A DNA stretch of 64,000 bases. Origin: an uncultured Flavobacteriaceae bacterium (GTDB lineage Bacteria > Bacteroidota > Bacteroidia > Flavobacteriales > Flavobacteriaceae). The position numbers were made by a program, and so were the translations under genes. The notes under the pieces are model-generated. The model had not been told where the DNA came from, made no database searches, and saw only the letters and a list, made by a program, of their open reading frames with translations. Where the stretch lies: positions 99 through 64,098 of the forward strand of contig CAZQGX010000011.1 of assembly GCA_964593255.1 (NCBI GenBank), read 5' to 3'. Positions 3,454 through 62,537 of this stretch are shown piece by piece (the first letter of the stretch is position 1; each line of letters starts with the position of its first letter).

Positions 3454-4297
3454 TTCCTTTCAGTATCGTTTTTATTCTATTGGTTTGTTCCATATCTTTA
3501 AATATGGCGTGGTGATCGTTGTTTTTTACGCTTTCGCGAAAGCGAGATAAATTTTCAATATATGCATCTAAACCCGCTAGCACGTATTTTTTATTTTGTG
3601 CAAAAATAGGGGTCCACATGGCTGGCGAGCTTTTTGCAAGGCGCACGGTACTTTCAAAACCACTACCAGCGAGATCAAAAATATCGCGCTCGTTTTGCTC
3701 TTCTTCTATAACAGTTTTACCCAGCATAAAACTAGAAATGTGGGATAAGTGTGATACATAGGCAATGTGCTTATCATGTGCTGCTGCGGTCATGTATCGC
3801 AATCGCATCCCTAGTTGTGAAAATAGATTTGCCGCAATATCATGCAAGGTAGTAGCCGTTTTGTCTACCTCGCAAATAATTATGGTTTTCTTTACAAATA
3901 AATTACTAATCGCCGCATCTGGTCCTGAAAATTCGGTTCCCGCAATAGGGTGTGCGGCAAGAAACTGCGCGCGATGTGGATGATGGGTTACAGCATTACA
4001 AATAGCTTCTTTAGTAGAGCCTACATCTATAACCAGTGTGTTTTTTGCAACCATATCTAAAACTTGTGGCAGTATTTCTAGGGTGGCATCTACTGGTATA
4101 GAAATAATAACCAGGCAGGCACAGGCAATATCTTGTAATTGCGCCACCTGATCTATAATGCCGTTTTCTTTTGCTTTTTGCGCGTGTTGTGCATTATTGT
4201 CTATACCATAAAAGGTAGCGCTAGGGTAGTGCACACGCATGTCCTTGAGTAGCGACCCACCTATTAAACCAGTGCCTATTAAAAAAATATGTTTCAT
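3437..4297 (-). CDS. tyrA: Prephenate dehydrogenase
   Basis: Rossmann start MKHIFLIGTGLIGGSL and the HP.AG motif (AAHPIAGTE). Start trimmed to the internal ATG abutting the stop of the upstream gene. Confidence 0.85.
   Translation of the reverse strand: MKHIFLIGTGLIGGSLLKDMRVHYPSATFYGIDNNAQHAQKAKENGIIDQVAQLQDIACACLVIISIPVDATLEILPQVLDMVAKNTLVIDVGSTKEAICNAVTHHPHRAQFLAAHPIAGTEFSGPDAAISNLFVKKTIIICEVDKTATTLHDIAANLFSQLGMRLRYMTAAAHDKHIAYVSHLSHISSFMLGKTVIEEEQNERDIFDLAGSGFESTVRLAKSSPAMWTPIFAQNKKYVLAGLDAYIENLSRFRESVKNNDHHAIFKDMEQTNRIKTILKGIENGK
3529..3544. repeat. CGCTTTCGCGAAAGCG palindrome, exact, inside tyrA
   Basis: Exact 16-mer, translated as SRFRES in tyrA. Confidence 0.95.
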
Positions 4298-5457
4298 TTG
4301 TCGGTCTTTTTGTTTACTCGTGTGATCATTTCTGTTATTTGATCTTCTGGCACACACAGGGAAAGTCTTACATATCCCGCACCATTATTGCCAAAAATGC
4401 TTCCTGGCGCGATGAATATGTATTGTTCATACAGCAATTCATTTACAAAAGTCTTGTCATCTTCTTTACCTGTGGGTAGTTTACACCACACAAATAACCC
4501 ACCGTGCTGCTCTTGTGGCTGTAAACCAAGTGCGTTAGCCAGTTGCAGGGTTAATTCCCTGCGTTTTTGATAAATATGGTTTTGGTTTTCTAACCAACTG
4601 TCTTTGGTTTGTAATGCTGCAATAGCGCCTTGCTGTATGCCATAAAACATACCGCTGTCCATATTTGTTTTTACTTTTAGAACTTCTTTTAATAATGCGG
4701 CATCGCCAGTAAGCATACCCACACGCCAGCCAGCCATATTAAAGGTTTTACTAAGTGAGTTGAGTTCTAATACGTTTTTTGACTTACCAGCAGCCAGATG
4801 AATACTTAGTTTTTGATCATAACCAGCGCAACTATATGGGTTATCGTTAATTAATAAAATGTCATTTTTATTAGTAAAAGCAAGTAGTTTTTCAAAAACC
4901 TCTTGCGACCCTGCAACACCTGTGGGCATATTAGGATAATTGACCCACATGATTTTTACCTTGCTTACATCTATTTGTTCTAGCACATTAAAATCTGGTA
5001 ACCAATCATTTTCTGCATTAAGATGATAAGTGACTGCGCTTGCCTGGCACAACAGTGTTGCACTGGCATATGTAGGATATCCAGGATCTGGTATCAATAC
5101 CTGGTCTCCCGGATTTAAAAATGCCATAGAAATGTGCAAGATACCCTCTTTACTACCCATTAAAGGAATGATCTCGGTGGCGGGGTCTAGCGTTACATTA
5201 TAATGATTGTGATAAAAATCTGCTATCGCTTGTCTTAATTCTGGTAATCCCATATAGCTTTGGTAACCATGTGCTTTGGGATTTTGCAGGGCAAGCGACA
5301 GTGCAGATAGCACCCCATCAGGTGGCGGTAAATCTGGATTTCCAATACCAGCATTGATGATGGGTATTCCTGCGTCGATTAAGGTTTTTACCTCGCGCAA
5401 TTTGGTAGCAAAGTAATATTCTTTAACTGTATCTAGACGTTGGGCGGTGGTGATCAT
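4294..5457 (-). CDS. Class I/II PLP-dependent aminotransferase (aspartate/prephenate type)
   Basis: NPxNPTG-like motif (NYPNMPTG) and the SLSKTFNMAGWRVG lysine motif. Lies inside the Phe/Tyr operon. Confidence 0.85.
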   Translation of the reverse strand: MITTAQRLDTVKEYYFATKLREVKTLIDAGIPIINAGIGNPDLPPPDGVLSALSLALQNPKAHGYQSYMGLPELRQAIADFYHNHYNVTLDPATEIIPLMGSKEGILHISMAFLNPGDQVLIPDPGYPTYASATLLCQASAVTYHLNAENDWLPDFNVLEQIDVSKVKIMWVNYPNMPTGVAGSQEVFEKLLAFTNKNDILLINDNPYSCAGYDQKLSIHLAAGKSKNVLELNSLSKTFNMAGWRVGMLTGDAALLKEVLKVKTNMDSGMFYGIQQGAIAALQTKDSWLENQNHIYQKRRELTLQLANALGLQPQEQHGGLFVWCKLPTGKEDDKTFVNELLYEQYIFIAPGSIFGNNGAGYVRLSLCVPEDQITEMITRVNKKTDK

Positions 5458-6266
5458 AAAGTATGCGATTTATATATTCCTAATACTTGTAAAGACTCTA
5501 CCAGCAGGCCTATTTCTAGCAACACCTCGTCAAATTGTGATTGCTGCTCAAATTCAAGATCGGCTACAAAAGAGAAAACAAATGCTTGTTCAATAATTGG
5601 CACCGATTGTATTTTTGAAACATTGATTTTAAGACCTGCTATTTTAGTTAAAATTTTTGCAAGACTACCAGGATGGTGCCCTGCTGTAAAATAGATGGTA
5701 GCCTTATTTGTATTAGTTATAGAGGTAGGCGCTGCAGTTACAATAACAAAACGAGTTGCATTGTTAGTTATCTCTTGTATTTGATCGTTAATAATGTTTA
5801 AATGATACAATTGTGCGGCATGTGCACTAGCTATTGCCGCAACACCTTGTTTTTGATCTCTAAAAATGCGGTAGGCAGCTGCAGCGGTATCATCGGTTTC
5901 TAAAAGCTGCACGTGTGGGTGATTCTTAAAAAACGAGGTGCATTGCAATAGCGCCATAGGGTGCGAGTGCACCTCTTTAATGTCATTAATTTTTTGACCA
6001 GGTAGTGCCATCAGTTTATGATTGATGTATAGGTGATACTCGCCCACAATTTGCAAATTGTAATCCTTGATCAAGTTATAGTTGGGTAAAATGCTGCCAG
6101 CAATAGAATTACCTATGGCCATAATGCCGCGGTCTACCTCTTTGTTTGCTACTGCTATGGCAACTAGGTCAAAAGATGTACATTCTTGTAAGGACACCTT
6201 TTTATAAAGCTGCGCCGCGACCTGATCGTGATAAGAACCTTTGATTCCTTGTATGGCTATTTTCAT
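5454..6266 (-). CDS. pheA: Prephenate dehydratase
   Basis: PDT domain (IQGIKGSYHD, TRF motif NATRFVIV) plus a C-terminal ACT-like domain (PGSLAKIL). Confidence 0.9.
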   Translation of the reverse strand: MKIAIQGIKGSYHDQVAAQLYKKVSLQECTSFDLVAIAVANKEVDRGIMAIGNSIAGSILPNYNLIKDYNLQIVGEYHLYINHKLMALPGQKINDIKEVHSHPMALLQCTSFFKNHPHVQLLETDDTAAAAYRIFRDQKQGVAAIASAHAAQLYHLNIINDQIQEITNNATRFVIVTAAPTSITNTNKATIYFTAGHHPGSLAKILTKIAGLKINVSKIQSVPIIEQAFVFSFVADLEFEQQSQFDEVLLEIGLLVESLQVLGIYKSHTL

Positions 6267-6274
6267 TTTTTTGT

Positions 6275-6302
6275 AAAAAAAAAGCCCTGATCAAATCAGG
6301 AC
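6275..6302 (-). terminator. Intrinsic terminator (attenuator) 8 nt upstream of the pheA start
   Basis: The minus strand reads GUCCUGA-UUUGA-UCAGGGC (7-bp stem) followed by U9. Confidence 0.7.
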
Positions 6303-6398: not shown

Positions 6399-6523
6399 AA
6401 TAAGTTGCTAAAGTAAAATAGATTTTTTTAAATACCTTGTTTTTAAAGGTGTTTAATTTATTAATTTAACTCAAACGATATAGTTGGACTAGTTTTTAAT
6501 GTCGCTTTTATGTTCTCGCTTTT

Positions 6524-6553
6524 ATGATTTCGCTTTCGCGAAAGCGAAATCAT
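6524..6553. repeat. Palindromic element, exact core within a 30-nt perfect palindrome
   Basis: ATGATTTCGCTTTCGCGAAAGCGAAATCAT, intergenic. Preceded by two partial TCGCTTTTATG repeats. Confidence 0.95.
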
Positions 6554-6936
6554 AAAGTTTATCTCGTTGCATAACAAGACGAAAGCGTGATAAAAGAAAA
6601 CTGTTGCCCCAATTATTAAAGTATAAAAGCAAAATAGAGTCGATGTCGTAAGGCTATATTATGAAATCGAGAAAAAACAAGCATAAGTCTTTATACTACA
6701 AATTTTATTTTTAGGTAAATTAATTGGCTAATCATAACATAATTTATAATTGTTTATCAACTATTTACAAATTATCGTTGATGTTTTATCTGGGTTTTAT
6801 TGCTGAAATTGATGCCTAAACAAGCCAGTATCCATAAACCAATCCTTAATAACAAAAGTAAATAAGATAGAAAATATAATTTCTTAATGTAACAAAAGTT
6901 ACTTTTAAAAATGATTAGTTAAAATAAATTTGAAGT

Positions 6937-8963: not shown

Positions 8964-8979
8964 CGCTTTCGCGAAAGCG
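8964..8979. repeat. Palindromic element, exact
   Basis: Exact 16-mer, intergenic, upstream of gldA. Confidence 0.95.
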
Positions 8980-11234: not shown

Positions 11235-12053
11235 CTACAGCAACTCAATCAAACCTTTAAATAAAGCAACCATTTTGGGCTCGGCTTTTCCCGCTACAGC
11301 GATAATATCGGCTATATCAACAGGGGCAAGGTCGTCTGGATCACACTCGTCGGTAAGTACAGATACTGCACAAACGGGTAGTTTTAAATGATTAGCAACA
11401 ATTATCTCTGGTACGGTACTCATACCCACAGCATCGGCTCCTAGAATGTGTAGCATCCTGTATTCTGCCTTGGTTTCTAGTTGCGGTCCTACCACACTGG
11501 CATAAACTCCTTTTTTAAGGCTGATGTTGTGCGTGGCAGCAAGCGACATAAGGTGCTCATTCATGTGCTGGTCATATGGGGCGCTCATATCTGTAAATCT
11601 ATCGCCAAAATCGCCCACCCCTTTAAAAGCTAGTGGGCTGCCACCTTGCAAATTGATATGGTCGTCGATCAACATCAGGTCTCCTTTTTTCATGTCTTTA
11701 TTAATCGCACCAGCGGCATTAGATACCAGTAAATGTTTAATGCCTAGACCGTGCATGACCCGCACAGGATAGGTAACATCTATCAAATCATACCCCTCAT
11801 ATAAATGAAATCTACCCTGCATGACCACCACTTTTTTACCACCTAGGTTGCCATAAATAAGCTTACCTGTATGAAATTCTACCGTTGCCAGTGGGAAAGA
11901 TGGGATTTGATTGTAGTGCGCAATTTTTTGCTGTTCTATATGATCAACTAGTTGGCCTAGACCAGTGCCTAGAACGATGCCTACTTCAGGCGCATCAAAA
12001 CCTTGAGACTGTAGATATTTTATTGATTTTTCTAATTGTTTTTTACTGAGCAT
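11235..12053 (-). CDS. Purine nucleoside phosphorylase (PNP/MTAP family)
   Basis: VGIVLGTGLG, GRFHLYEGY and GMSTVPE motifs. Confidence 0.85.
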   Translation of the reverse strand: MLSKKQLEKSIKYLQSQGFDAPEVGIVLGTGLGQLVDHIEQQKIAHYNQIPSFPLATVEFHTGKLIYGNLGGKKVVVMQGRFHLYEGYDLIDVTYPVRVMHGLGIKHLLVSNAAGAINKDMKKGDLMLIDDHINLQGGSPLAFKGVGDFGDRFTDMSAPYDQHMNEHLMSLAATHNISLKKGVYASVVGPQLETKAEYRMLHILGADAVGMSTVPEIIVANHLKLPVCAVSVLTDECDPDDLAPVDIADIIAVAGKAEPKMVALFKGLIELL

Positions 12054-12672
12054 TTTTTAAGTGTTTTAAAAAGGGTTGAAATACAGGAATATCTTTAATA
12101 TCTTCATACACATCTACATCATTGCGTTCTTTAAGCAAGGCATAATTGACGTTTACAAGATCGGCCAGGGTATCTTTTAATACAGATGGCGTACCCCATT
12201 CTTTGTTATCAAAGATACCACCTACCAGGCGTTTTTTAAAACCTATCAAATAATAACCACCGTCTTCTGCTGGGCCTATTACCGCATCATGTTTTTCTAA
12301 TTGGTAGAACGCCTCCTCAATATCTACTTGTAACATGTCGTACATATCAGACCCTATGATAATAACAAGATTATGATTTTGAAAAGCTGTATTAAAAGCA
12401 TGTTTCATGCGCATACCTAAATCTTTACCATTTTGCACCTGTTTTTGATAAACAGTTTTATTCCATGAATCATTTTCATGAACTTTCTCACTGTACCAAA
12501 CTTGTTTATTTACTTTAAGGTCCATAGTAATCGACCGAGTATGATTTAATAAAAAGCAGTAAATATCTAGTGCCGCCTGATCTCCTACGGTTGCGGCAAG
12601 TCTTCGTTTTCCTTTTCCTAACTCGGGGTTACGGGTAAAAATGATAAGGCAATTTTTATTTTTTGAAATCAC
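12043..12672 (-). CDS. DUF2064 / TIGR04282-family nucleotidyltransferase-like protein
   Basis: The LIIFTRNPELGKGKRRLA N-terminus and DGGYYLIG motif are typical of DUF2064. Confidence 0.65.
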   Translation of the reverse strand: MISKNKNCLIIFTRNPELGKGKRRLAATVGDQAALDIYCFLLNHTRSITMDLKVNKQVWYSEKVHENDSWNKTVYQKQVQNGKDLGMRMKHAFNTAFQNHNLVIIIGSDMYDMLQVDIEEAFYQLEKHDAVIGPAEDGGYYLIGFKKRLVGGIFDNKEWGTPSVLKDTLADLVNVNYALLKERNDVDVYEDIKDIPVFQPFLKHLKNAQ

Positions 12673-12915
12673 TAAAGTATGGGGTTGTAATTGATAAGAA
12701 GGGTTTTAAATACTAGTTGCTATTTGAGAAGCTGATAGTAATGTCGTGAAAAAACGAATAGCATTATGTAAGCTTGCCTATTTTAAAACAAAACTAAGGT
12801 AATTTGTTAGATTACAAATCTGCTATTGTTTTTATCATATAAGTTTGCTCTCAACCTTATCTACTTTTCACCCAAAAATTTGAGAAATAAGTAATTGGGT
12901 TTCATGAAATAATCG

Positions 12916-12923: not shown

Positions 12924-13002
12924 CAACCGCTTTGAGAGTAGATCTTACGGCAACGTCAGATCGACTGACATACATAATATTCATTATATAATTAATTTTG
13001 GC

Positions 13003-13272
13003 ATGTATTTAGCACCAGAAAAAAAAGCAGAAATTTTCGCAAAGTACGGAAAAGATGCAAACGACACGGGTAACACCGACGCGCAAATCGCATTGTTTAC
13101 CATGCGTATCAATCACTTAACACTTCACTTAAAACAAAATCGTCACGACTACAATACAGAGCGTAGTCTTGTAAAACTTGTAGGTAAAAGACGTTCTCTT
13201 TTAGATTACAAGATGAAAAAAGATATTGTTGCTTACCGTGAATTGATCAAGGATTTAGGTATCAGAAAATAA
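13003..13272 (+). CDS. rpsO: 30S ribosomal protein S15
   Basis: 89 aa. GNTDAQIALFTMRINHLTLHLKQNRHDYNTERSL is the S15 signature region. Confidence 0.95.
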   Translation: MYLAPEKKAEIFAKYGKDANDTGNTDAQIALFTMRINHLTLHLKQNRHDYNTERSLVKLVGKRRSLLDYKMKKDIVAYRELIKDLGIRK

Positions 13273-13461: not shown

Positions 13462-13477
13462 CGCTTTCGCGAAAGCA
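13462..13477. repeat. Palindromic element, 15/16
   Basis: CGCTTTCGCGAAAGCA in the rpsO-pnp intergenic region. Confidence 0.9.
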
Positions 13478-15926: not shown

Positions 15927-15963
15927 AAAATGCCCCTTGAGATTTCAAGGGGCATTTTTTTTT
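15927..15963 (+). terminator. Intrinsic terminator after pnp (member of a repeated terminator family)
   Basis: ATGCCCCTT-GAGATTTC-AAGGGGCAT followed by T10. Confidence 0.85.
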
Positions 15964-15976
15964 GTTTGTGTTATTT

Positions 15977-15992
15977 CGCTTTCGCGAAAGTT
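15977..15992. repeat. Palindromic element, 14/16, fused to the pnp terminator
   Basis: CGCTTTCGCGAAAGTT. Confidence 0.85.
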
Positions 15993-16121
15993 TAAAAGGT
16001 AGTATCTTATATGTAGTCAATTTTATTTGTATGGCAAATCACATAAAGTTAGAATAAACGCGCCTTTCTCGCCAGAAACCTTTTCATTTTTAAAACGAGC
16101 CTTACCATTTGGTTTCAGACC

Positions 16122-16726: not shown

Positions 16727-16800
16727 GTCCTCTTAATATTAATACGAAAAATTTTGGAATTCAAATTTACTTCAAACATTGCTATTATCACTTCATGTTA

Positions 16801-16836
16801 AAATGCCCCTTGAAATTTCAAGAGGCATTTTTTTGC
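16801..16836. terminator. Hairpin terminator, same family as the pnp terminator
   Basis: AAATGCCCCTTGAAATTTCAAGAGGCATTTTTTT, about 100 nt downstream of the minus-strand lipoprotein gene. A/T runs on both sides. Confidence 0.6.
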
Positions 16837-17901: not shown

Positions 17902-18288
17902 ATGATTGCTGCAAAACATCTAAAAGACCTGCGTTTAAAAAATAACTATACCCAAGAACATCTTGCCACAAAGCTAGGTATTTCTCAAAAAACCTATTCA
18001 AATCTTGAAAGTGGTACAGGAAAAATAACCCTGGAGCATTTATTAAAAATTGCAGCGGTTTATGCAATGCCGGTTGTACCCTTAACAGCATTGCTCACAA
18101 ACACGAGCCCAGAGTTCATGACCGCACTTGAAGAAGAAAACAAGGAAAGTACGGCTTACGAATTGTACCATGGTGTAAATGCAAACCTTACCCTAGAGTT
18201 ACTTACATCTTATAAAGCGCAAATAGACCAGCTAACTAAATTGAATGCAGTTTTAGAGGAACGCCTGCGTGTTCTATCCAGAGTGTAG
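17902..18288 (+). CDS. XRE-family helix-turn-helix transcriptional regulator (cassette 1)
   Basis: LKDLRLKNNYTQEHLATKLGISQKTYSNLESG is a canonical Cro/C1-type HTH. C-terminal coiled-coil-like tail. Confidence 0.85.
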   Translation: MIAAKHLKDLRLKNNYTQEHLATKLGISQKTYSNLESGTGKITLEHLLKIAAVYAMPVVPLTALLTNTSPEFMTALEEENKESTAYELYHGVNANLTLELLTSYKAQIDQLTKLNAVLEERLRVLSRV

Positions 18289-18304: not shown

Positions 18305-18340
18305 AAAATGCTCCTTGAAATTTCATGGGGCATTTTTTTG
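18305..18340 (+). terminator. Terminator after XRE-1, same family as the pnp terminator
   Basis: AAAATGCTCCTTGAAATTTCATGGGGCATTTTTTT. Confidence 0.75.
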
Positions 18341-18352
18341 TTTGTGTAATTT

Positions 18353-18368
18353 CGCTTTTGCGAAAGTT
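18353..18368. repeat. Palindromic element, 13/16, fused to the XRE-1 terminator
   Basis: CGCTTTTGCGAAAGTT. Confidence 0.7.
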
Positions 18369-18404
18369 TGGAAAACCACAATTCATAAGAATGGACTAAG
18401 ATTA

Positions 18405-20414: not shown

Positions 20415-20801
20415 ATGATTGCTGCAAAACATTTAAAAGACCTGCGTTTAAAAAATAACTATACCCAAGAACATCTTGCCACAAAGCAAGGTATTTCTCA
20501 AAAAACATATTCAAATCTTGAAAGTGGTACAGCAAAAATAACGCTGGAGCATTTATTAAAAATTGCAGCGGTTTATAAAATGCCGGTTGTACCATTAACA
20601 GCACTACTTACAAACACCAGCCCAGAGTTCATGACCGCACTTGAAGAAGAAAACAAGGAAAGTACGCCTTACGAATTGTACCATGGTGTAAATGCAGACC
20701 TTACTCTAGAGTTACTTACATCTTACAAAGCGCAAATAGACCAGCTAACTAAACTGAATGCAGTTTTGGAAGAGCGCCTACGGGTTCTATCCAAAGTGTA
20801 G
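20415..20801 (+). CDS. XRE-family HTH regulator (cassette 2)
   Basis: 128 aa, differing from the 17902 copy at only 6 positions by eye. Confidence 0.85.
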   Translation: MIAAKHLKDLRLKNNYTQEHLATKQGISQKTYSNLESGTAKITLEHLLKIAAVYKMPVVPLTALLTNTSPEFMTALEEENKESTPYELYHGVNADLTLELLTSYKAQIDQLTKLNAVLEERLRVLSKV

Positions 20802-20817: not shown

Positions 20818-20853
20818 AAAATGCCCCTTGATATTTCAAGGGGTGTTTTTTTT
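20818..20853 (+). terminator. Terminator after XRE-2, same family
   Basis: AAAATGCCCCTTGATATTTCAAGGGGTGTTTTTTTT. Confidence 0.7.
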
Positions 20854-20866
20854 GTTGGTGTTATTT

Positions 20867-20882
20867 CGCTTTCACTAAAAAG
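20867..20882. repeat. Half-decayed palindromic element fused to the XRE-2 terminator
   Basis: CGCTTTCACTAAAAAG. The left arm is kept and the right arm is degraded. Confidence 0.5.
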
Positions 20883-22754: not shown

Positions 22755-22770
22755 CGCTTTCGCTAAAGCG
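22755..22770. repeat. Palindromic element, 15/16, at the right edge of the island
   Basis: CGCTTTCGCTAAAGCG. Confidence 0.9.
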
Positions 22771-26970: not shown

Positions 26971-26986
26971 CGCTTTCGCAAAAGCG
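26971..26986. repeat. Palindromic element, 15/16
   Basis: TCTCGCTTTCGCAAAAGCGAGA, intergenic. Confidence 0.9.
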
Positions 26987-29819: not shown

Positions 29820-30268
29820 GAGTAGTTATTCAAAGAGTCAGCAAGGCAAGTGTCACTATAAACGATACCGTTCATGCAGCCATCAACCACGGTTTGCTTA
29901 TTCTATTGGGCATCAGTCACGATGATACACAAGAAGATATCAATTGGCTAGTAGGTAAAATCATAGGTATGAGAATATTTTCTGATAGCCACGGCAAAAT
30001 GAACCTCAGCGTGCAAGATAATAAAGGGGAATTACTAGTTATTTCACAATTTACGCTATTTGCAAGCACTAAAAAGGGCAATCGCCCTAGTTACATCAAT
30101 GCCGCAAGTCCAGATATTGCAGTACCTTTATATGAAACTTTTATAAGTACGCTTTCGCGAAAGCTGAACAAAAAAATAAAATCTGGAGTTTTTGGTGCAG
30201 ATATGAAAGTACAGTTAATCAACGACGGGCCAGTGACTATAGTGGTAGATAGTAAAAGTAAAGAGTAA
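29816..30268 (+). CDS. dtd: D-aminoacyl-tRNA deacylase
   Basis: MRVVIQRV start, SQFTL and NDGPVT motifs. The GTG start overlaps the rsgA stop. Confidence 0.9.
   Translation: MRVVIQRVSKASVTINDTVHAAINHGLLILLGISHDDTQEDINWLVGKIIGMRIFSDSHGKMNLSVQDNKGELLVISQFTLFASTKKGNRPSYINAASPDIAVPLYETFISTLSRKLNKKIKSGVFGADMKVQLINDGPVTIVVDSKSKE
30150..30165. repeat. Palindromic element, 15/16, inside dtd
   Basis: CGCTTTCGCGAAAGCT, read as T-LSRK-L. Confidence 0.9.
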
Positions 30269-38088: not shown

Positions 38089-38104
38089 CGCTTTCGCGAA
38101 AGCG
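38089..38104. repeat. Palindromic element, exact
   Basis: CCGCTTTCGCGAAAGCGG, intergenic. Confidence 0.95.
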
Positions 38105-43027: not shown

Positions 43028-43043
43028 CGCTTTCGCGAAAGCG
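43028..43043. repeat. Palindromic element, exact, between nqrC and nqrD
   Basis: Exact 16-mer in the 46-nt nqrC-nqrD spacer. Confidence 0.95.
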
Positions 43044-47714: not shown

Positions 47715-49163
47715 TTATTCATATTCAATACAAACATTTTTTGGTTCGGTAAAAAAGTTTAGGGCTTCAAAACCACCCTCACGACCCACACCGCTGTTTT
47801 TAATACCACCAAAAGGTGTTCTTAAATCCCTGTTTAACCAAGTGTTAACCCATACAATTCCCGTTTCTATCTCTTGTGTCAATCGCATAGTTTGCGATAG
47901 GTCACTAGTCCATATGGTGGCACTCAGTCCATAATTAGAATCGTTTGCTAGTTGCAGTGCATGGGCTTCATCAGTAAATGGCATAATGGTAACCACTGGT
48001 CCAAAAATCTCTTCTTGATTTAATTGACAGTCATTGGTCTTTACTTCAATCACCGCAGGGGCGAGGTAATATCCGTTTTCATAACCTGTAATGGATATAC
48101 GGTGACCGCCTGTTAATACGGTATATTTTTCTGGTTCCGCTTTCGCAATAGCGATATATTCTTCAATCTTTTCTCTATGACCAGCACTTACAACAGCACC
48201 TATTACAGTATTTGCATTTTCTGGATGGCCTATAGCCAGTTGTTGCACACGATCGACAAAATCTTTTTTAAAACGTTCATAAATATTTTGTTCTATAAAA
48301 ATACGACTGCCACATAAACATATTTGACCTTGGTTGGCAAAAGAAGAGCGCACTGTGGTGTCCAGCATCTTATTATAATTACAACTAGCAAAGATCAAAT
48401 TGGGATTTTTACCGCCCAATTCTAACGAGAGTTTTTTAAACATTGGTGCTGCTGTTTTTGCAATATGGGCACCAGTAGCGGTACCACCTGTAAAACTAAT
48501 GGCTTTAATATCAGGATGCGCAACAATAGCCTGACCACAACTGGCGCCAGTGCCGTGCACGATATTTAACACCCCTGCAGGCAGCCCTGCTTTTTTTACT
48601 ATATCACCCAGCAAATATGCGGTAGCTGGCGTCACCTCACTAGGTTTTGCCACCACACAATTACCAGCAGCAATAGCAGGTGCGATTTTCCAGGTAAAAA
48701 GATATAAAGGTAAATTCCACGGTGATATACATCCCACCACACCTACAGGTTTACGCAAGGTAAGGTTAATGGAGTTTTTCCCTACACTTTCATGTGCTTT
48801 ACTGGCATATTGGGTAATAGCATGGCCATAAAATCTAAAGTTTGATGAAGATCGCGGTATATCTATAGACCGTGCTAGTGATACTGGTTTGCCATTGTCA
48901 CGCGATTCTGCAGCGGCAAGTGTTTCTAGTTGTTCTTCTATTAAATCTGCAATGCGCAGCATGATTTTAGATCGCTGTTCTACAGTGGTGCGCGACCAAG
49001 AGGGAAAAGCAGCACGCGCAGCTTTAAAAGCGCTTTCTACATCTTCTTCATTAGAATTTGGGATTTCTCCATAAACCTCGCCACTTGCAGGTTCATAATT
49101 GTCTAACCAAAACCCAGATAATGGTATATGTTCTTCATTATTAATAAAATTTTTTATGTCCAT
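47715..49163 (-). CDS. NAD(P)-dependent aldehyde dehydrogenase (semialdehyde dehydrogenase-like)
   Basis: ELGGKNP and FANQGQICLCGSR catalytic motifs, EEIFGPV. Confidence 0.85.
   Translation of the reverse strand: MDIKNFINNEEHIPLSGFWLDNYEPASGEVYGEIPNSNEEDVESAFKAARAAFPSWSRTTVEQRSKIMLRIADLIEEQLETLAAAESRDNGKPVSLARSIDIPRSSSNFRFYGHAITQYASKAHESVGKNSINLTLRKPVGVVGCISPWNLPLYLFTWKIAPAIAAGNCVVAKPSEVTPATAYLLGDIVKKAGLPAGVLNIVHGTGASCGQAIVAHPDIKAISFTGGTATGAHIAKTAAPMFKKLSLELGGKNPNLIFASCNYNKMLDTTVRSSFANQGQICLCGSRIFIEQNIYERFKKDFVDRVQQLAIGHPENANTVIGAVVSAGHREKIEEYIAIAKAEPEKYTVLTGGHRISITGYENGYYLAPAVIEVKTNDCQLNQEEIFGPVVTIMPFTDEAHALQLANDSNYGLSATIWTSDLSQTMRLTQEIETGIVWVNTWLNRDLRTPFGGIKNSGVGREGGFEALNFFTEPKNVCIEYE
48138..48153. 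repeat. Palindromic element, 14/16, inside the aldehyde dehydrogenase gene
   Basis: CGCTTTCGCAATAGCG, read as AIAKAE on the minus strand. Confidence 0.7.
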
Positions 49164-49308: not shown

Positions 49309-49324
49309 CGCTTTCGCGAAAGCG
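49309..49324. repeat. Palindromic element, exact
   Basis: TCTCGCTTTCGCGAAAGCGAGA, intergenic. Confidence 0.95.
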
Positions 49325-49933: not shown

Positions 49934-50986
49934 ATGAAAAAATATATTATTGCAAGCCTATTTTCAATCGCCTTGCTATATTCTTGTAAAGAAAAAGAAG
50001 CAGAAGATACTACATTAAAAGCTCAAGAATTTGTAGGAAACGCCATTGGGACTACTTATTCTATCAAGCTTTTTTCTGATCAAGAACAGGATGTGACGAG
50101 ACAGGTTGATAGTATCATAGACATGTTTAACAATTCCATGAGCACCTGGGTACCAGGTTCTTTAATCAATAGAATTAATGCTGGTGAGGACAGTGTACTG
50201 GTAGGAATGCCTTTTAAAGAGGTTTTTAACCAGGCGCAACAGGTTTATAAAAACACCGATGGTTATTTTGACCCTACTGTGGGTAATTTAGTAAATGCTT
50301 ATGGTTTTGGCGCAAATGGTAAAAAAGAGCGCATTCCTACACCACAGCAAATAGATAGTTTAAAACAATTTGTTGGTTTTGATAAATTGCAGTTGGTTCC
50401 ATCTGCGATCAAGGATTCTTTCTATATAAAAGCTACTCAAAAAGGAATGTATCTAGAGTTTAACGCTATTGCAAAAGGTACTTTGGTAGATTATATGTCT
50501 AGATTATTAGATGGTAAAAATATTGATAACTATCTGGTAGAGGTAGGCGGCGAGATCGTTACTAAAGGGATCAACCTAGAACGCGATAGTAAGTGGGCAG
50601 TAGGAATAGACGATCCTAACCAGCTACCAGGCGAGCGCGTTTATATTACCGTGGTAGAATTATCTAATGTTGCCATGGCAGGAAGTGGTAACTACCGCAA
50701 GTTTAAAGTTGATCCAGAAAGTGGGCAAGAATTTGTTCATACTGTTAATCCTTTAACAGGCCAGGCGATACCTAGCGAGGTGCTGGGCGTTAATGTAATC
50801 GCAAAAAACTGCACCCTAGCCGATGGATATGCCACAGCTTTTATGGCCATGCCTTTAGAAAAGTCAAAAGAGCTGATTAAAAATCTTAAAGATATAGAGG
50901 TGCTGATCATGTACACCGATAAAAATGGCTTGTTGCGATTTGAGACAACACCAGGTTTTGAAAAATATGTAAAACAGGCAGGTTAA
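49934..50986 (+). CDS. apbE: FAD:protein FMN transferase (ApbE), lipoprotein
   Basis: Lipobox LLYSC. GTTYSIK, FDPTVG, AMAGSGNYRKF and ADGYATA motifs. Confidence 0.85.
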   Translation: MKKYIIASLFSIALLYSCKEKEAEDTTLKAQEFVGNAIGTTYSIKLFSDQEQDVTRQVDSIIDMFNNSMSTWVPGSLINRINAGEDSVLVGMPFKEVFNQAQQVYKNTDGYFDPTVGNLVNAYGFGANGKKERIPTPQQIDSLKQFVGFDKLQLVPSAIKDSFYIKATQKGMYLEFNAIAKGTLVDYMSRLLDGKNIDNYLVEVGGEIVTKGINLERDSKWAVGIDDPNQLPGERVYITVVELSNVAMAGSGNYRKFKVDPESGQEFVHTVNPLTGQAIPSEVLGVNVIAKNCTLADGYATAFMAMPLEKSKELIKNLKDIEVLIMYTDKNGLLRFETTPGFEKYVKQAG

Positions 50987-51753
50987 TTTTTTGTCACCAC
51001 AGGGATGAGTTCGCCAGCAGCGAGGCGATAACGATCTACTAATTTGGGATCTAGTTGCGCAGTATAATCAACAGCTTGCACACTAAACCCCACTTCTTTT
51101 AAACGTGTAAAATAGTCCATTCCATAAACACGCACGTGATCATATTGTCCAAAAATGCGTGCCCTTTCTTTGCGGTCGGTGATAGAATGATCTTCAAAAG
51201 TTGTTGTCCTGTTGTTTTCTAAAGGTATTTGTAAAATGGCCCTGCCGCCTGGTTTTAAGACTCTGTGTATCTCCTGCATGGCTTTAAAATCATCATCAAT
51301 ATGTTCAAGTACATGATTGCATAAAATAAAATCAAATTCATTATCCTTAAAAGGCAGGTTGCAAATATCTGCAAGAACATCTGCTAGTGGCGAGTTTAGA
51401 TCTGTGGTGGTGTATTGAATGATCTCGCTATTGCGAAAACGTTTATAAAAACATTGTTCAGGGGCAAAATGTAATAATTTTTGAGGTTGTGTGAGTAAAT
51501 CGGTTTCATTTTGTAAATACAGCCAAAGCAGGCGGTGGCGTTCTAAAGAAAGTGTTGACGGCGACAGCACATTGCCCCGCACATTTTCATAACCATAGGG
51601 TAAAAAACTTTTAAAAGTCTTCCCGTCTATTGGGTCTTCATAACGATTTCCTTTATACCACCATGCGATCAATGGGCGCACATAATAGCTCGCTTTAATC
51701 AACCATGGCCGCGGTATCAGATTTAGAAAAAATTTAAAGACTTTTTTAAGCAA
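50983..51753 (-). CDS. Class I SAM-dependent methyltransferase
   Basis: FDFILCNHVLEHI....LKPGGRAILQ. Confidence 0.7.
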   Translation of the reverse strand: MLKKVFKFFLNLIPRPWLIKASYYVRPLIAWWYKGNRYEDPIDGKTFKSFLPYGYENVRGNVLSPSTLSLERHRLLWLYLQNETDLLTQPQKLLHFAPEQCFYKRFRNSEIIQYTTTDLNSPLADVLADICNLPFKDNEFDFILCNHVLEHIDDDFKAMQEIHRVLKPGGRAILQIPLENNRTTTFEDHSITDRKERARIFGQYDHVRVYGMDYFTRLKEVGFSVQAVDYTAQLDPKLVDRYRLAAGELIPVVTKN

Positions 51754-52788: not shown

Positions 52789-53574
52789 ATGATAATAGAT
52801 TTAAAAGACAAAACTGCTTTAGTTTGTGGCAGCAGTACAGGAATAGGAAGAGAAACCGCTATGCAGTTTGCACAGGCAGGTGCTCGAGTAATTTTATTGG
52901 CCCGCAATCCTAATAAATTACAAGAGGTTTTAAAAGAGCTTGACACCAGTCACCGTGATGACCATACCTATCTAGTGGCAGATTTCTCAAATTATAAAGA
53001 GGTAAGTGATGTGGTTTCCGCTTTCGCGAAAGCGAATACCATACACATTATAGTCAACAACACAGGTGGTCCTGCCCCAGGATTGCTACTAGATGCAGAA
53101 GTAGACGCTTTTGAACAAGCTTTTACCCAGCATGTAAAATGTAATCAGGTAATATTGCAAGCCTGTGCGCCAGGCATGAAAGAGGCGGGTTATGGCCGGG
53201 TAATCAACGTGATTTCTACAAGCGTTAAAGCACCTATAGAGTTTTTGGGTGTTTCTAATGTGACACGTGGTGCGGTGGCCAGTTGGGCAAAAACCTTGGC
53301 AACAGAGTTAGGGTCATTTGGCATAACTGTAAACAACGTGCTACCAGGTTTTACTGCAACCGATAGACTAGATAAAATCATAACTGGTAAAGCAAAAAGA
53401 GCCGGACAAACTGATGACGATGCTGCTGCGGTGATGAAAAGCCACGTGCCTGCAAGGAGGTTTGCCACACCAGACGAGGTGGCAAATGCCATTACATTTT
53501 TGGCTAGCGATAAAGCAAGTTATATTAACGGCATCAATTTACCTGTAGATGGCGGTAGAACAAAAAGTTTGTAG
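52789..53574 (+). CDS. SDR-family oxidoreductase
   Basis: VCGSSTGIGR cofactor motif and NNTGG. Short-chain dehydrogenase length and layout. Confidence 0.85.
   Translation: MIIDLKDKTALVCGSSTGIGRETAMQFAQAGARVILLARNPNKLQEVLKELDTSHRDDHTYLVADFSNYKEVSDVVSAFAKANTIHIIVNNTGGPAPGLLLDAEVDAFEQAFTQHVKCNQVILQACAPGMKEAGYGRVINVISTSVKAPIEFLGVSNVTRGAVASWAKTLATELGSFGITVNNVLPGFTATDRLDKIITGKAKRAGQTDDDAAAVMKSHVPARRFATPDEVANAITFLASDKASYINGINLPVDGGRTKSL
53019..53034. repeat. Palindromic element, exact, inside the SDR gene
   Basis: Exact 16-mer, read as SAFAKAN. Confidence 0.95.
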
Positions 53575-56021: not shown

Positions 56022-57299
56022 ATGAAAGAAGATTTTATTCACTACCTCTGGAAATTTAAAAAGTTGAGCGGTATTGCCCTGAAAACAACTGAGGGTAAAG
56101 AAATACTTATCAAATCTTTAGGTGAGCACAATCATTTTTCTGGCCCTGATTTTTTTAATAGTCGAGTAGAGATTGATGGTCAAGATTGGGCAGGAAATAT
56201 AGAAATGCATGTCAAAGCAAGTGATTGGTACCTGCATGGGCATGATGACGATCCAGCATACGACAATGTTATTCTTCATGTAGTATGGTCACATGATGCC
56301 GAAATCACTAGAAGGGACGACATAAATATCCCGGTTTTAGAAGTGTCACAGTACATAAATCCCGGTTTGGTTCAATCTTATAGAAAATTATTTGCTGTAA
56401 AAAACGGTCAGTTTATAAATTGCCAAAGCCAGTTTTCAAGTATAGATTCCTTTAAAAGAGACCATTGGTTAGAAAAGCTGTTTTTTGAGCGATTAGAATA
56501 TAAATCTGATCGCATAAGACACATGCTTCAACAAAATAACAACGATTGGGAAGCTGCTTTTTTTCAACTTCTTGCAAGAAGCTTTGGCACAAAAACAAAC
56601 GCCGACGCCTTTGAACAGCTTGCCAGTAGTATGAATCAACATGTGGTGCGCAAACTAGCAAAAGACGCTTTTCAGTTAGAGGCCGCTTTATTAGGTCAGT
56701 CGGGATTGCTGGATGAGGTTAAAAATGATGCTTATTATCAAGATTTAGTTAAGGAGTTCGCTTTTGCGAAAGCCAAACATCAATTACAACCTTGCCTAAC
56801 ACCTATGTTATTTTTTAAATTACGACCTGCAAATTATCCTACAGTGCGTCTTTCACAATTAGCGATGTTATACCATCGTAATCCTATGCTTTTTGGAGAA
56901 GTATTGCTTGCCAAATCACGCCTAGAAATACAAAAACTTTTTGACGTACAAGCTGCAAAATATTGGAATACCCACCATGTTTTTGATAAAGAAACTGAAG
57001 AAAGAGAAAAAATACTGACAACAGATTTCATTGACTTGCTAATTATTAATTGCATCATCCCTATAAAATTTATACATGCAAAGTATCTGGGAAAAGATAA
57101 AACAGAAGAATTGTTAGACCTGATTACTGAAATAAAGCCCGAGAAAAATTCCATCATAACAGGGTTTAAAAAACTTTTTAAGATAGAAAACGCCATGCAA
57201 ACTCAATCTTTACTGCAGTTAAAACCCAATTATTGCGATGTCAACAAATGTTTAAGCTGCGATATAGGGGTGGCATTGTTACGGGATGAAATTAATTAA
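56022..57299 (+). CDS. DUF2851-family protein
   Basis: The MKEDFIHYLWKFKK start and 425-aa length match the family as I recall it. Confidence 0.6.
   Translation: MKEDFIHYLWKFKKLSGIALKTTEGKEILIKSLGEHNHFSGPDFFNSRVEIDGQDWAGNIEMHVKASDWYLHGHDDDPAYDNVILHVVWSHDAEITRRDDINIPVLEVSQYINPGLVQSYRKLFAVKNGQFINCQSQFSSIDSFKRDHWLEKLFFERLEYKSDRIRHMLQQNNNDWEAAFFQLLARSFGTKTNADAFEQLASSMNQHVVRKLAKDAFQLEAALLGQSGLLDEVKNDAYYQDLVKEFAFAKAKHQLQPCLTPMLFFKLRPANYPTVRLSQLAMLYHRNPMLFGEVLLAKSRLEIQKLFDVQAAKYWNTHHVFDKETEEREKILTTDFIDLLIINCIIPIKFIHAKYLGKDKTEELLDLITEIKPEKNSIITGFKKLFKIENAMQTQSLLQLKPNYCDVNKCLSCDIGVALLRDEIN
56759..56774. repeat. Palindromic element, 14/16, inside the DUF2851 gene
   Basis: CGCTTTTGCGAAAGCC, read as FAFAKAK. 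Confidence 0.7.
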
Positions 57300-60393: not shown

Positions 60394-61260
60394 ATGAATC
60401 AGTTAAGATCCCTTTTTGCTTTTGATAGAAAACAGCAAAGAGGGATTTTTGTATTAATGGTACTTCTGCTCGTTATCCTTTCGGTCTTTTTTTATGTAAA
60501 ACAACTGCCACAAGAGCCTTTAACTTTAAAAGACGCCTCTTTATATCAGGATAAAATAGACGCACTAGCTGCTATACAACAAAAACGCAGGGACACAATT
60601 TATGCTTTTAACCCCAATTACATCACAGATTATAGAGGGTATAAACTAGGTCTCAACGTTCAAGAGATTGATCGGTTATTCCGCTTTCGCGAAAGCGGTA
60701 AATTCATAAACTCAAAACAAGATTTCCAGCAAGTTACAAAGGTGAGCGACCAATGGCTGGATAGTATCTCGCCCTATTTTAAATTCCCCGATTGGGTTAC
60801 AAATCCTAAAAACACTTCAAAAAGTAATTATGCGGTGTATAATAATGACATAAAAATAGTGGTTAAAGACATCAATAAGGCATCGCAAGAAGAATTAAAA
60901 AAAGTGTACGGTATAGGCCCTGCACTATCTGGCAGGATCATAAAAGAAAGAGAACGTTTACAAGGTTTTATTGATATCACACAACTAAAAGGCGTTTATG
61001 GCCTTACAGATTCTACAATGGTGCAACTTAAGAAACACTTTTACGTTACACCACCACAAGGATTTTCAAAAATTGCATTAAATACAGCCACTCAAGAGCA
61101 GTTGTTAACTATTCCTTATTTTAACGACTACCTGGTAGAGAAACTAATAGAACAAAGAACCTTAAGAGAAGGGTTTAAAAGCTGGGATAAAGTCTTGTTA
61201 ACATCTAGGTTCCCACAAGAAAAATTAGATTTAATTCAATTATATTTGACACTTAATTAA
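60394..61260 (+). CDS. Helix-hairpin-helix (ComEA-like) membrane-anchored DNA-binding protein
   Basis: N-terminal TM segment and repeated HhH units (INKASQEELKKVYGIGPALSGRIIKERE; LNTATQEQLLTIPYFNDYLVEKLIEQR). Confidence 0.7.
   Translation: MNQLRSLFAFDRKQQRGIFVLMVLLLVILSVFFYVKQLPQEPLTLKDASLYQDKIDALAAIQQKRRDTIYAFNPNYITDYRGYKLGLNVQEIDRLFRFRESGKFINSKQDFQQVTKVSDQWLDSISPYFKFPDWVTNPKNTSKSNYAVYNNDIKIVVKDINKASQEELKKVYGIGPALSGRIIKERERLQGFIDITQLKGVYGLTDSTMVQLKKHFYVTPPQGFSKIALNTATQEQLLTIPYFNDYLVEKLIEQRTLREGFKSWDKVLLTSRFPQEKLDLIQLYLTLN
60682..60697. repeat. Palindromic element, exact, inside the ComEA-like gene
   Basis: Exact 16-mer, read as FRFRESG. Confidence 0.95.
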
Positions 61261-61340
61261 AAAAACAAATTTTCATTAAGAATATGGCAGTTAAATTCAA
61301 GTTTTAGTTGCTTTTTAATAATTTATTGAAATCACTCCCT

Positions 61341-62510
61341 ATGTATTCAAAATATTTTACCGAAGAGCATGACGCCTTCAGACAAAGTTTTAGAGATTTT
61401 CTTCAAAAAGAAGCTGTTCCCCACATCGATAGATGGGAAGAGACTGGTCACATAGATCGTGAGATTTTTCAAAAAATGGGAGAAATGGGATATTTTGCCC
61501 TTTATTATCCCGAACAATATGGTGGTTTAAATCTAGATTTCTTTTACACAGTAATTTTTTTAGAAGAAATGCAACGCATCAACTCTGGCGGTTTTGCAGC
61601 TGCAATGTGGGTACAAGCTTTTCTAGGCGCACAACATTTACTTAAAGAAGGTGACGAGCGTATTAAAAATGAATATCTTGTTCCTACACTTACAGGTGAA
61701 AAAATAGGCTGTTTGGGTGTTACAGAGCCATTCGGTGGTAGTGATGTTGCTGCTATGAGAACTACTGCGGTAAAAGATGGAGATCATTATGTGATTAACG
61801 GTTCAAAAACCTTCATTACAAATGGCGTTTACAGTGATTATTTGGTAATTGCTGCCAAAACAGATGTAGAGGCCAAAGGAAGAGGAATCTCTATATTTTT
61901 AATCGATAGAGAAACCCCTGGGATTAGTGCCACAAAGCTCAATAAACTAGGATGGAGAGCAAGTGATACAGGCGAGATAGGATTCAACAATGTGCGTATT
62001 CCAGCAGCAAATTTAATGGGTGAAGAGGGAAAAGGTTTTCCATATATCATGCAGCATTTTGCACTAGAGCGCTTGATTATGGGGATTAATGCCCATGCCC
62101 GAGCAGAATATGCTGTTGAATACACCATAGGTTACATGAAAGACCGTACTGCATTTGGTAAATCACTCGATACTTATCAGGCCTTGCGTCACAATCTTGC
62201 CGATATGATAAGCGAGGTAGAAATGGCAAAATGTTTTAATTACTCTGTTGCCGAAGAACTTGATAAAGGTTTATACCCTGTCAAAGAAGCAAGTATGTCA
62301 AAATTATTATCTACTAAAATCGCCGATGAGGTTATTTATAAGTGCCTTCAATATCTAGGCGGCTATGGTTATATAGAAGAGTATCCACTTGCCAGAATGT
62401 GGCGCGATAGTAGATTAGGGCCTATAGGCGGTGGTACAAGCGAGATCATGAGAGAGATTATTGCAAAAATGACGCTAGACGGTAAAGACTATAAAGTTGC
62501 TGTAAAGTAA
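61341..62510 (+). CDS. Acyl-CoA dehydrogenase
   Basis: GVTEPFGGSD, FITNG and GGGTSEI motifs. Start set at the ATG (MYSKYFTEEH). Confidence 0.9.
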   Translation: MYSKYFTEEHDAFRQSFRDFLQKEAVPHIDRWEETGHIDREIFQKMGEMGYFALYYPEQYGGLNLDFFYTVIFLEEMQRINSGGFAAAMWVQAFLGAQHLLKEGDERIKNEYLVPTLTGEKIGCLGVTEPFGGSDVAAMRTTAVKDGDHYVINGSKTFITNGVYSDYLVIAAKTDVEAKGRGISIFLIDRETPGISATKLNKLGWRASDTGEIGFNNVRIPAANLMGEEGKGFPYIMQHFALERLIMGINAHARAEYAVEYTIGYMKDRTAFGKSLDTYQALRHNLADMISEVEMAKCFNYSVAEELDKGLYPVKEASMSKLLSTKIADEVIYKCLQYLGGYGYIEEYPLARMWRDSRLGPIGGGTSEIMREIIAKMTLDGKDYKVAVK

Positions 62511-62521
62511 TTGATGTACTT

Positions 62522-62537
62522 CGCTTTCGCGAAAGCG
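62522..62537. repeat. Palindromic element, exact
   Basis: Exact 16-mer, 12 nt after the acyl-CoA dehydrogenase stop. Confidence 0.95.

Follow-up and report, generated by a model that had tools for sequence, protein, structure and literature searches.

A hyper-abundant 14–16-bp palindromic DNA word, created by substitution in genes and spacers of one Flavobacteriaceae clade

We analyzed a stretch of 64,000 nucleotides from an uncultured Flavobacteriaceae bacterium (GenBank assembly GCA_964593255.1, contig CAZQGX010000011.1, positions 99 to 64,098 of the forward strand), hereafter the window, which carries nine exact copies of the 16-bp palindrome CGCTTTCGCGAAAGCG, with none in 100 dinucleotide-preserving shuffles. 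The word is restricted to one clade of Flavobacteriaceae, composed of Nonlabens, Dokdonia and their relatives with a GC content of 35–45%. Point substitutions produced its copies in situ, both within genes and in spacers, and the copies are regularly spaced and conserved in position and at synonymous sites. By analogy with the uptake signal sequences (USS) of Pasteurellaceae, the DNA uptake sequences (DUS) of Neisseria and the cyanobacterial HIP1, we read it as a DNA-level recognition word of the same class; our tentative first choice of function is a signal for self-DNA uptake and recombination that would be read by a dimeric protein.

All nine exact copies lie where the first-pass annotation of this DNA had placed them, with none extra, and the five copies that it had listed at 15/16 identity are likewise present (13462, 22755, 26971, 30150 and 31714). 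Six further copies, which it had grouped as more divergent, resolve into three at 14/16 (15977, 48138 and 56759), two at 13/16 (18353 and 51426) and one decayed copy at 12/16 (20867–20882), the twentieth of the window. With up to three mismatches allowed, 19 sites are found where 0.11 are expected, in DNA of 35% GC. Thirteen of the 19 TCGCGA sites of the window fall within CTTTCGCGAAAG, and the six others compare with about six calculated from base composition; what recurs is the long word rather than the NruI hexamer. Restriction-site effects, whether avoidance or enrichment of TCGCGA or CGCG, were rejected, the counts outside the motif agreeing with expectation. Among the variants with a single mismatch, 31 of 43 differ only at position 1 or 16, and the hard core of the word is therefore taken to be the 14-mer GCTTTCGCGAAAGC. 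The outer two positions show a preference for C and G.

The host genes named in the first-pass annotation are supported by Pfam, namely tyrA-type prephenate dehydrogenase, Dtd, EPSP synthase (aroA), aldehyde dehydrogenase, SDR, DUF2851 and an HHH_3 ComEA-like gene, and the translations agree with the readings RFRES, LSRK and AFAKA that it had assigned by phase. Pfam adds an eighth host, a SAM methyltransferase gene with a copy at 51426. In none of the eight genes is the copy a 16-nt insertion, and length differences of one to three residues adjoin four of the copies. In the tyrA product, RFRES stands opposite HLKEL of the PDB homologue without a gap; in the aroA product it stands opposite ELRKV of the PDB EPSP synthases, with a three-residue difference just upstream. 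LSRK of Dtd belongs to a variable linker that differs by one residue in length from the PDB homologues. AFAKA of the SDR protein faces LFEKA in the PDB homologue with no gap at the motif and a three-residue difference four residues downstream, and IAIAKA of the aldehyde dehydrogenase faces FRLAVE next to a two-residue length difference. Codon alignments of the DUF2851 and HHH_3 orthologues have no gap at the copy. Alignment of the host genes with orthologues lacking the motif, as the annotation had proposed, thus uncovered neither an insertion nor a target-site duplication.

The two codon alignments also show what the word replaced. In the HHH_3 gene, the Aestuariibaculum codons at the site are AGT TAC AGA AAG CAG (SYRKQ) and those of Nonlabens CGC TTT CGC GAA AGC (RFRES), the Arg codon passing from AGA in the outgroup to CGC in Nonlabens. 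At the DUF2851 site, Dokdonia and Aestuariibaculum carry [DQ][YF]LKQ in place of the AFAKA of Nonlabens. At least 10 substitutions separate the outgroup and Nonlabens states, with the length unchanged. Since the outgroup residues and the Arg codons differ at these two sites, it is the proteins that changed to accommodate the word; its price, in protein sequence and codon usage, is the replacement of amino acids and the use of rare codons by housekeeping genes. The residues encoded by the word had been described as native parts of the proteins: this stands insofar as the alignments contain no insertions, and fails insofar as the residues did not pre-exist, the outgroup having SYRKQ and [DQ][YF]LKQ.

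These alignments bear directly on a mobile origin, in which a miniature inverted-repeat transposable element (MITE), or repetitive extragenic palindromic (REP) elements and their paired form (REPIN), would have multiplied through a RAYT transposase or gene conversion. We consider this hardly credible. The very high copy number, the identity of the copies and the threefold occurrence in the window of one 67-nt terminator-plus-palindrome module would suit it, but no genic copy is a 16-nt insertion, target-site duplications are absent, the sites are orthologous throughout the genus, and stable instead of polymorphic, the arms of the copies share neither sequence nor copy-specific complementarity, and REPIN-style close pairs are absent. 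REP, BIME and REPIN elements and MITEs resemble the word as short palindromic high-copy repeats, often just past stop codons. They are, however, extragenic insertions that are often paired and turn over between strains, whereas the Nonlabens word is mostly genic, made by substitution, single and stable in position. The MITE class was rejected on the ungapped DUF2851 and HHH_3 copies and on the PDB alignments, which differ by at most one to three residues beside the copies. The REP/REPIN class was rejected on the position of 95 of 150 exact copies within open reading frames (ORFs), the lack of pairing and the Pfam support for eight hosts in the window; these 150 copies come from a clade set of 807 kb, in which genes and spacers outside the window were separated by a simple longest-ORF caller.

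The repeated module consists of a canonical intrinsic terminator (ATGCCCCTTGA...TCAAGGGGCAT followed by a T-run), a GT-rich spacer and a decaying copy of the palindrome. Its three paralogues of about 67 nt occupy positions 15927–15993, 18305–18369 and 20818–20882, with a terminator-only fourth at 16800–16834. The first follows pnp and the two others follow 95%-identical HTH_3 (XRE-type) paralogues of 128 residues (17902–18288 and 20415–20801); because the modules follow duplicated genes, their triplication is attributed to ordinary segmental duplication. The stretch between 16 and 22 kb contains only degenerate copies of the motif, has a lower GC content and may be a duplicated or acquired segment.

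Conservation in sister genomes, which the first-pass annotation had included among its proposed checks, is evident: orthologous sites recur across Nonlabens, in genomes whose DUF2851 proteins are 65–84% identical to that of the window. The recurrent sites (loci are designated by L numbers) are found in the DUF2851 gene at offset 737, in the HHH_3 gene at offset 282–288, in NamZ, in an ADK-PRT fusion and in the spacer behind the acyl-CoA dehydrogenase gene. Every other Nonlabens locus has the 14-mer core intact at the DUF2851 site, within a copy that is exact or departs from the 16-mer only at position 16, and L172 has an exact copy there; that of the window is decaying, through two synonymous changes. 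The HHH_3 site is kept in L123–L127, L172 and L173, and with two mismatches in L122. Just past the stop codon of the acyl-CoA dehydrogenase gene, the word is kept in L122–L125 and L127 between flanks that have diverged, while in L172 a copy lies in the next spacer downstream, after an extra ORF of 150 residues. In L126 (Nonlabens sp. YIK11, 11332–12714), the spacer copy is separated from the acyl-CoA dehydrogenase stop codon by an inserted alpha-amylase gene, which it now follows, with two mismatches. Where an amino acid is shared between species, the codon is identical in 276 of 310 comparisons within the motif (0.89) and in 7545 of 14939 elsewhere in the same genes (0.505), the species pairs not being phylogenetically independent. 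The Dokdonia DUF2851 gene has its copy at a different offset, which indicates that sites have turned over since the split of Nonlabens and Dokdonia.

The taxonomic range of the word was established by a scan of one genome per species (185,579 species, 596 Gb), in which loci were chosen for holding an exact copy. The window itself is about 80% identical in DNA sequence to Nonlabens dokdonensis. Among the matches listed, 104 of 117 loci belong to Dokdonia, Nonlabens (including strain BBFL7) or unnamed Flavobacteriaceae, and the other matches listed are single ones in unrelated phyla, as chance predicts for 596 Gb. Loci were also fetched blind to the motif, through homologues of DUF2851. Every Nonlabens locus obtained in this way, with a GC content of 36–42%, contains the motif, as do the deeper relatives L172 (45% GC, 8 sites in 21 kb) and L173; Dokdonia Hel_I_53 has 8 sites in 21 kb. 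In the syntenic 21-kb locus of Aestuariibaculum, which has the same gene order, there is no site within three mismatches, and no hyper-repeated 12-mer takes its place as an alternative word. The motif-blind loci, totaling 247 kb, hold 37 exact, 23 one-mismatch and 10 two-mismatch copies, that is, one exact copy per 6.7 kb, one per 4.1 kb with up to one mismatch and one per 3.5 kb with up to two; the extrapolated total is about 450–900 copies per genome. In contigs labeled 'uncultured Aquimarina sp.', three copies with the typical skewed flanks were seen in 16 kb (L068 at 156 and 1089, L043 at 7054), which means that either these labels are loose or the clade extends beyond Nonlabens and Dokdonia. 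A separate repetition was noticed in the Dokdonia Hel_I_53 locus (L128, 13731–21212), where several 12-mers unrelated to the palindrome occur 13–14 times each, probably from the repeated domains of a SprB/cadherin-like gene of 2493 residues.

Around the core, the copies share an anatomy that is the same in genes and spacers. The immediate flanks follow the pattern K-T-M [16-mer] K-A-M, spacer copies usually having TTA...TAA. Beyond them, a mirror-symmetric skew extends for about 25 nt on each side, the 5' arm being C-poor and T/G-rich and the 3' arm G-poor and A/C-rich. The 5' arm has 5–11% C, compared with a background of 18%, in gene and spacer copies alike; for the window copies only, arm C is 8.1% vs 17.8 ± 1.5% at random positions, and G+T is 64% vs 50 ± 2%. 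In the arms of spacer copies, T is enriched at 3, 6, 9 and 12 nt from the motif (56% vs 42%, P = 5e-6). Codon usage was rejected as the cause of the skew because it holds by gene-strand orientation, in all three phases and in spacers. Three other explanations of the flanks were also discarded. No positioned word is present beyond K-T-M, the enriched 5-mers being only G/T-rich; pairing between the flanks, layer by layer, equals the prediction from composition; and native arm pairs fold no better than arms exchanged among copies. Long perfect palindromes, which the first-pass annotation had described (20–30 nt) for intergenic copies, proved exceptional, as the perfect extension is 0–4 bp per side in 54 of 55 intergenic exact copies, and the sole long one is a 36-nt palindrome at 6521–6556 of the window.

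The 20 copies of the window, with no strand assigned to the palindrome, are the following.

3529–3544: exact copy, in the tyrA-type prephenate dehydrogenase gene (3437–4357, minus strand), read as RFRES
6531–6546: exact copy, divergent intergenic, at the center of the 36-nt perfect palindrome 6521–6556
8964–8979: exact copy, intergenic, with a Por_Secre_tail protein gene on one side and an ABC ATPase gene on the other
13462–13477: 15/16 copy, position 16 G>A, in a spacer about 200 nt upstream of pnp
15977–15992: 14/16 copy, after pnp, downstream of a canonical terminator and GT-rich spacer (module 15927–15993)
18353–18368: 13/16 copy, in the paralogous terminator module after HTH_3 gene 17902–18288
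20867–20882: 12/16 decayed copy CGCTTTCACTAAAAAG, in the third paralogous module, after HTH_3 gene 20415–20801
22755–22770: 15/16 copy, G10>T, divergent intergenic
26971–26986: 15/16 copy, G10>A, in a spacer flanked by two minus-strand genes
30150–30165: 15/16 copy, in dtd (29816–30268, plus strand), read as LSRK
31714–31729: 15/16 copy, in aroA (30688–31956, plus strand), read as RFRES
38089–38104: exact copy, convergent intergenic, adjoining the plug gene of a type IX secretion system (T9SS)
43028–43043: exact copy, in a 46-nt spacer within the nqr operon (FMN_bind / Rnf-Nqr genes)
48138–48153: 14/16 copy, in the aldehyde dehydrogenase gene (47715–49163, minus strand), read as IAIAKA
49309–49324: exact copy, divergent intergenic
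51426–51441: 13/16 copy, in the SAM methyltransferase gene (50983–51753, minus strand), read as RFRNS
53019–53034: exact copy, in the SDR gene (52789–53574, plus strand), read as AFAKA
56759–56774: 14/16 copy, in the DUF2851 gene (56022–57299, plus strand), read as AFAKA
60682–60697: exact copy, in the HHH_3 ComEA-like gene (60394–61260, plus strand), read as RFRES
62522–62537: exact copy, 11 nt past the acyl-CoA dehydrogenase stop codon, upstream of rpsU

At the orthologous position of the aroA copy, N. dokdonensis (L111) has the exact word. The SDR copy at 53019, with the arms GAGGTAAGTGATGTGGTTTC on the 5' side and AATACCATACACATTATAGTC on the 3' side, is kept in L122, and at the SAM methyltransferase site the L122 orthologue reads LFKES, with 9/16 identity to the motif. 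Just upstream of the 36-nt palindrome, within 6498–6556, a half-site-like CGCTTTTATG is repeated with a 14-nt period. A ribosomal S15 leader (Rfam RF00114) lies at 12948–13059, upstream of the rpsO-pnp region and about 400 nt upstream of the copy at 13462. Near the left edge of the window, positions 859–934 match group II intron domains V/VI in Rfam (46 bits, above the gathering score); the ORF that runs off this edge (1–193) has no Pfam match, and the rest of any group II intron would lie to the left of the window.

Over the clade set, the 55 exact copies outside ORFs (37%) occupy the roughly 10% of the sequence that is non-coding. The comparison of spacer and coding density called for by the first-pass annotation thus gives an approximately 5-fold enrichment per base in spacers, yet the copies are mostly genic. 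The 95 genic copies are found in all three phases, read as AFAKA in 60, RFRES in 22 and LSRK in 13 cases; the AFAKA frame is benign. About 6 of 59 AFAKA copies (loci L001–L117) lie in N-terminal signal-peptide regions (e.g. ...LLLFMTAFAKAQ...), where the word provides the A-X-A motif typical of signal-peptidase cleavage sites. Of 54 spacer copies, 36 lie between same-strand, 10 between divergent and 8 between convergent genes, in proportion to the available sequence. A position just after stop codons, as the annotation had observed, holds statistically, with 22 of 52 flanking-stop distances at or below 17 nt (2–17 nt), and no spacer copy is closer than 17 nt to a putative start.

The same annotation had seen terminator-like behavior in the intergenic copies; this is contradicted by the hairpin energy of -4.3 kcal/mol, by the A-rich 3' flank and by the copies in divergent promoter regions and in the nqr operon. 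More generally, an RNA-level element, that is, a REP-like stabilizer of mRNA 3' ends, a terminator or an RNase site, appears very improbable. It would account for the half of same-strand-spacer copies that lie 2–17 nt past a stop codon and, the word being palindromic, would therefore work in either transcript orientation. The hairpin has nonetheless a z-score of only -0.9, and the flanks, T-rich on the 5' side and A-rich rather than U-rich on the 3' side, are the reverse of those of a terminator. Convergent spacers are not enriched and 10 of 54 spacer copies stand between divergent genes; one copy sits in the 46-nt spacer within the nqr operon, three lie downstream of separate canonical terminators, 63% are within ORFs by the longest-ORF rule, and Rfam has no match at any copy. 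The class of intrinsic terminators was rejected on hairpin energy, flank polarity, spacer types and the separate terminators upstream of three copies.

The copies are spaced regularly. In the window, the coefficient of variation (CV) of the gaps is 0.44 for the 17 sites with up to two mismatches, and likewise for the 19 sites with up to three (both P ~1e-4), the smallest gap being 1171 nt. When the window is pooled with seven motif-blind loci, the CV is 0.41, compared with 0.90 ± 0.10 under a null weighted 5.2-fold to spacers, with a mean gap of about 3.5 kb; the smallest gap is 750 nt, and the pooled set has no REPIN-style close pairs. Because six of the seven loci (L122–L127) are orthologous, they do not contribute independently to the statistics of spacing and conservation.

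To our knowledge, self-DNA recognition in natural transformation, as by USS and DUS, is the only experimentally established function for words that combine these properties, and for that reason the uptake reading is ranked first. As the dyad is perfect, the reader may be a dimeric protein that binds double-strand DNA. Such a protein would recognize the palindrome on conspecific DNA during natural transformation, at uptake and then at recombination, which would make the word a functional analogue of the Pasteurellaceae USS and the Neisseria DUS. Preferred uptake and recombination of motif-bearing fragments would push near-matches to the perfect word and retain them. Selection or a fixation bias acting on the nucleotide sequence has kept the copies where they arose on the chromosome, with one in about every 3.5 kb. 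Such a concentration on the perfect word characterizes uptake sequences, not ordinary regulator sites.

The likeness to DUS and USS rather than to REP or MITE elements, already drawn in the first-pass annotation, is upheld by copies that are genic, made by substitution, stable in position and clade-specific. USS (core AAGTGCGGT) and DUS (GCCGTCTGAA) are likewise clade-specific words with hundreds of near-perfect copies, about one-third of them in spacers and the rest genic, in all frames with a skew to the frame of a tolerated peptide; they too originate by substitution, change protein sequence and are stable at orthologous positions. USS are evenly spaced and have weaker flank signals beyond their core. 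In Nonlabens and its relatives, the word is in genome-wide excess within one clade, and its genic copies arose by substitution and are kept at orthologous positions. USS and DUS double the frequency of the tripeptides they encode, and the residues at which they lie are poorly conserved (PMC2817400). Among Flavobacteriales, natural competence and a preference for self DNA are on record for Riemerella columbina, in which a search restricted to k-mers of up to 10 bases yielded no uptake word (PMC7965970).

Several observations weigh against an uptake function. The known uptake words are asymmetric, 9–12 nt long and present about once per kb, whereas the Nonlabens word is a 14–16-nt palindrome found once per 3.5–7 kb; it is 3–6 times sparser than USS and DUS, and its hosts are Bacteroidota. 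Its symmetric K-rich and M-rich arms have no counterpart in USS or DUS and are left unexplained by the uptake model. The literature searched contains no report of competence for Nonlabens or Dokdonia, and no candidate receptor was named in this analysis. Contigs of temperate phages carry three to six exact copies at a host-like density, some of them inside ORFs. Two tailed temperate phages (L168/L151/L171, IMGVR_UViG_3300040781_000495; L136/L152/L159, IMGVR_UViG_3300036669_000050) have four to six exact copies each, roughly one per 6 kb, and their genes include those for a baseplate hub, a tape measure protein and an integrase. The phage copies are at odds with the finding that uptake sequences are missing from Haemophilus and Neisseria genes that have no homologues in related genomes (PMC2817400). 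In L136, one copy falls between the end of an ORF and the integrase stop codon.

Positional conservation and regular spacing, moreover, are predicted equally by a site of chromosome architecture, an alternative that we regard as possible although it ranks below uptake. The word would then be bound by a dimeric nucleoid-associated, ParB/Noc/SlmA-like, condensin-loading or topoisomerase-associated protein and be kept by purifying selection at about one per 3.5 kb, to organize or mark the chromosome. A binding site for a nucleoid protein, which the first-pass annotation had listed as an alternative, is still a serious rival. A perfect dyad of 14–16 bp has the size of the parS, Noc (NBS) and SlmA (SBS) operators, which also act at the DNA level and can lie inside genes. 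The regular spacing, the conserved positions and synonymous sites and the symmetric flanks, which extend about 25 nt to either side and make up a footprint of about 66 bp, suggestive of a large nucleoprotein complex, all agree with such a role. The known ParB/Noc/SlmA-type sites are, however, degenerate, number tens per genome and usually occupy one chromosomal region; the estimated 450–900 near-perfect copies exceed them by one to two orders of magnitude and are near-identical. For an architectural site, for which no candidate protein was named, the cost borne by housekeeping genes in replaced amino acids and rare codons is high. HIP1, which is likewise conserved and periodic, has been proposed to act in chromosome or nucleoid structure (PMC5861425).

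The skewed arms and the phage copies would be accommodated by a signal read on single-stranded DNA (ssDNA), a reading that we judge unlikely. Each unwound strand would present the mini-hairpin d(GCGAAAGC) with a GT-rich, C-poor tract on its 5' side, and would serve as a bidirectional stop for exonucleases and a RecA-loading point, which would make the word a palindromic equivalent of Chi, or else would direct priming, like the origin hairpin of phage G4. Positions 2–15 of the core are exactly d(GCTTTCGC) and d(GCGAAAGC) overlapping by GC. The mini-hairpin d(GCGAAAGC) melts at 76.5 °C, resists the 3' exonuclease of T4 DNA polymerase and lies, unbound by SSB, in the origin hairpin of phage G4, and standard energy parameters miss its stability (PMC13037366). 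On either strand, the C-poor G/T-rich arm 5' of the hairpin would be the retained part of a 3' tail, and temperate phages carry the motif. On the other side, the fit to the mini-hairpin could be a coincidence, and the flank signal is compositional only, with no fixed sequence motif. The variant GCGTTTGC exemplifies how the duplex dyad can be kept while GCGAAAGC is broken.

Escherichia coli has Chi about once per 4.5 kb, close to the density of the Nonlabens word, and some temperate phages also contain Chi. The Chi sites known so far are 5–8 nt long, asymmetric and oriented with replication. The two resemble each other in density, in their occurrence in genes and spacers and in a GT-rich context; Chi is, unlike the Nonlabens word, short, asymmetric, replication-oriented and only modestly over-represented. 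Membership of the Chi class was rejected, the word being palindromic and 14–16 nt long. More unlikely still, in our estimate, is the specific form in which the word is a bidirectional ssDNA signal of genome maintenance, whose mini-hairpin would halt resection or mark incoming transforming strands and favor RecA loading. The same low weight is given to its possible forms, a structure-based, orientation-free counterpart of Chi or a chromosomal priming signal, in which the phages would have copied the word to pass as self.

A HIP1-type palindrome tied to methylation or repair, generated or maintained by an orphan methyltransferase or by short-patch repair acting on the CGCG/TCGCGA center, is doubtful and comes after the ssDNA readings in our ranking. 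The word is an analogue of HIP1 (GCGATCGC, cyanobacteria), not a member, because sequence and phylum differ. It is twice as long and contains no short core that is over-represented alone, and it is about ten times rarer than HIP1. What connects them is a hyper-abundant palindrome in genes and spacers, conserved beyond codon expectation and spaced non-randomly (PMC5861425), and the parallel in abundance and orthologous conservation was counted in favor of the methylation or repair reading (PMC5861425, PMC4390886). Several variants of the inner core are, in addition, CpG transitions (C7>T and its mirror G10>A). Outside the word, however, TCGCGA is neither enriched nor avoided (six vs about six), and a specificity that extends over 14–20 bp goes far past known methyltransferase or Vsr-type sites.

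The word belongs to a known kind, that of hyper-abundant, selectively maintained genomic words. What is new is the perfect dyad of 14–16 bp, the skewed arms of about 25 nt, the host among Bacteroidota and the recurrence every 3.5 kb or so. The core GCTTTCGCGAAAGC was not found in the searched literature, in which no title or abstract on Nonlabens or Dokdonia and palindromes concerned such a repeat and the combination of Dokdonia with REP returned nothing. We know of no earlier such word in Bacteroidota, and words that overwrite coding sequence at fixed sites are known to us from few lineages, Pasteurellaceae, Neisseriaceae and cyanobacteria.

Earlier words of this kind opened questions on transformation, recombination and chromosome structure. 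Dokdonia and Nonlabens are cultivable marine genera, in which competence, self-preference and the reader protein are directly testable. The word also bears on how much protein-coding cost a genome pays for a DNA signal, and it offers a sharp taxonomic marker for binning. It may further become a handle for genetic tools in these organisms, if donor DNA that carries it transforms better, as is the case for HIP1 in Synechococcus.

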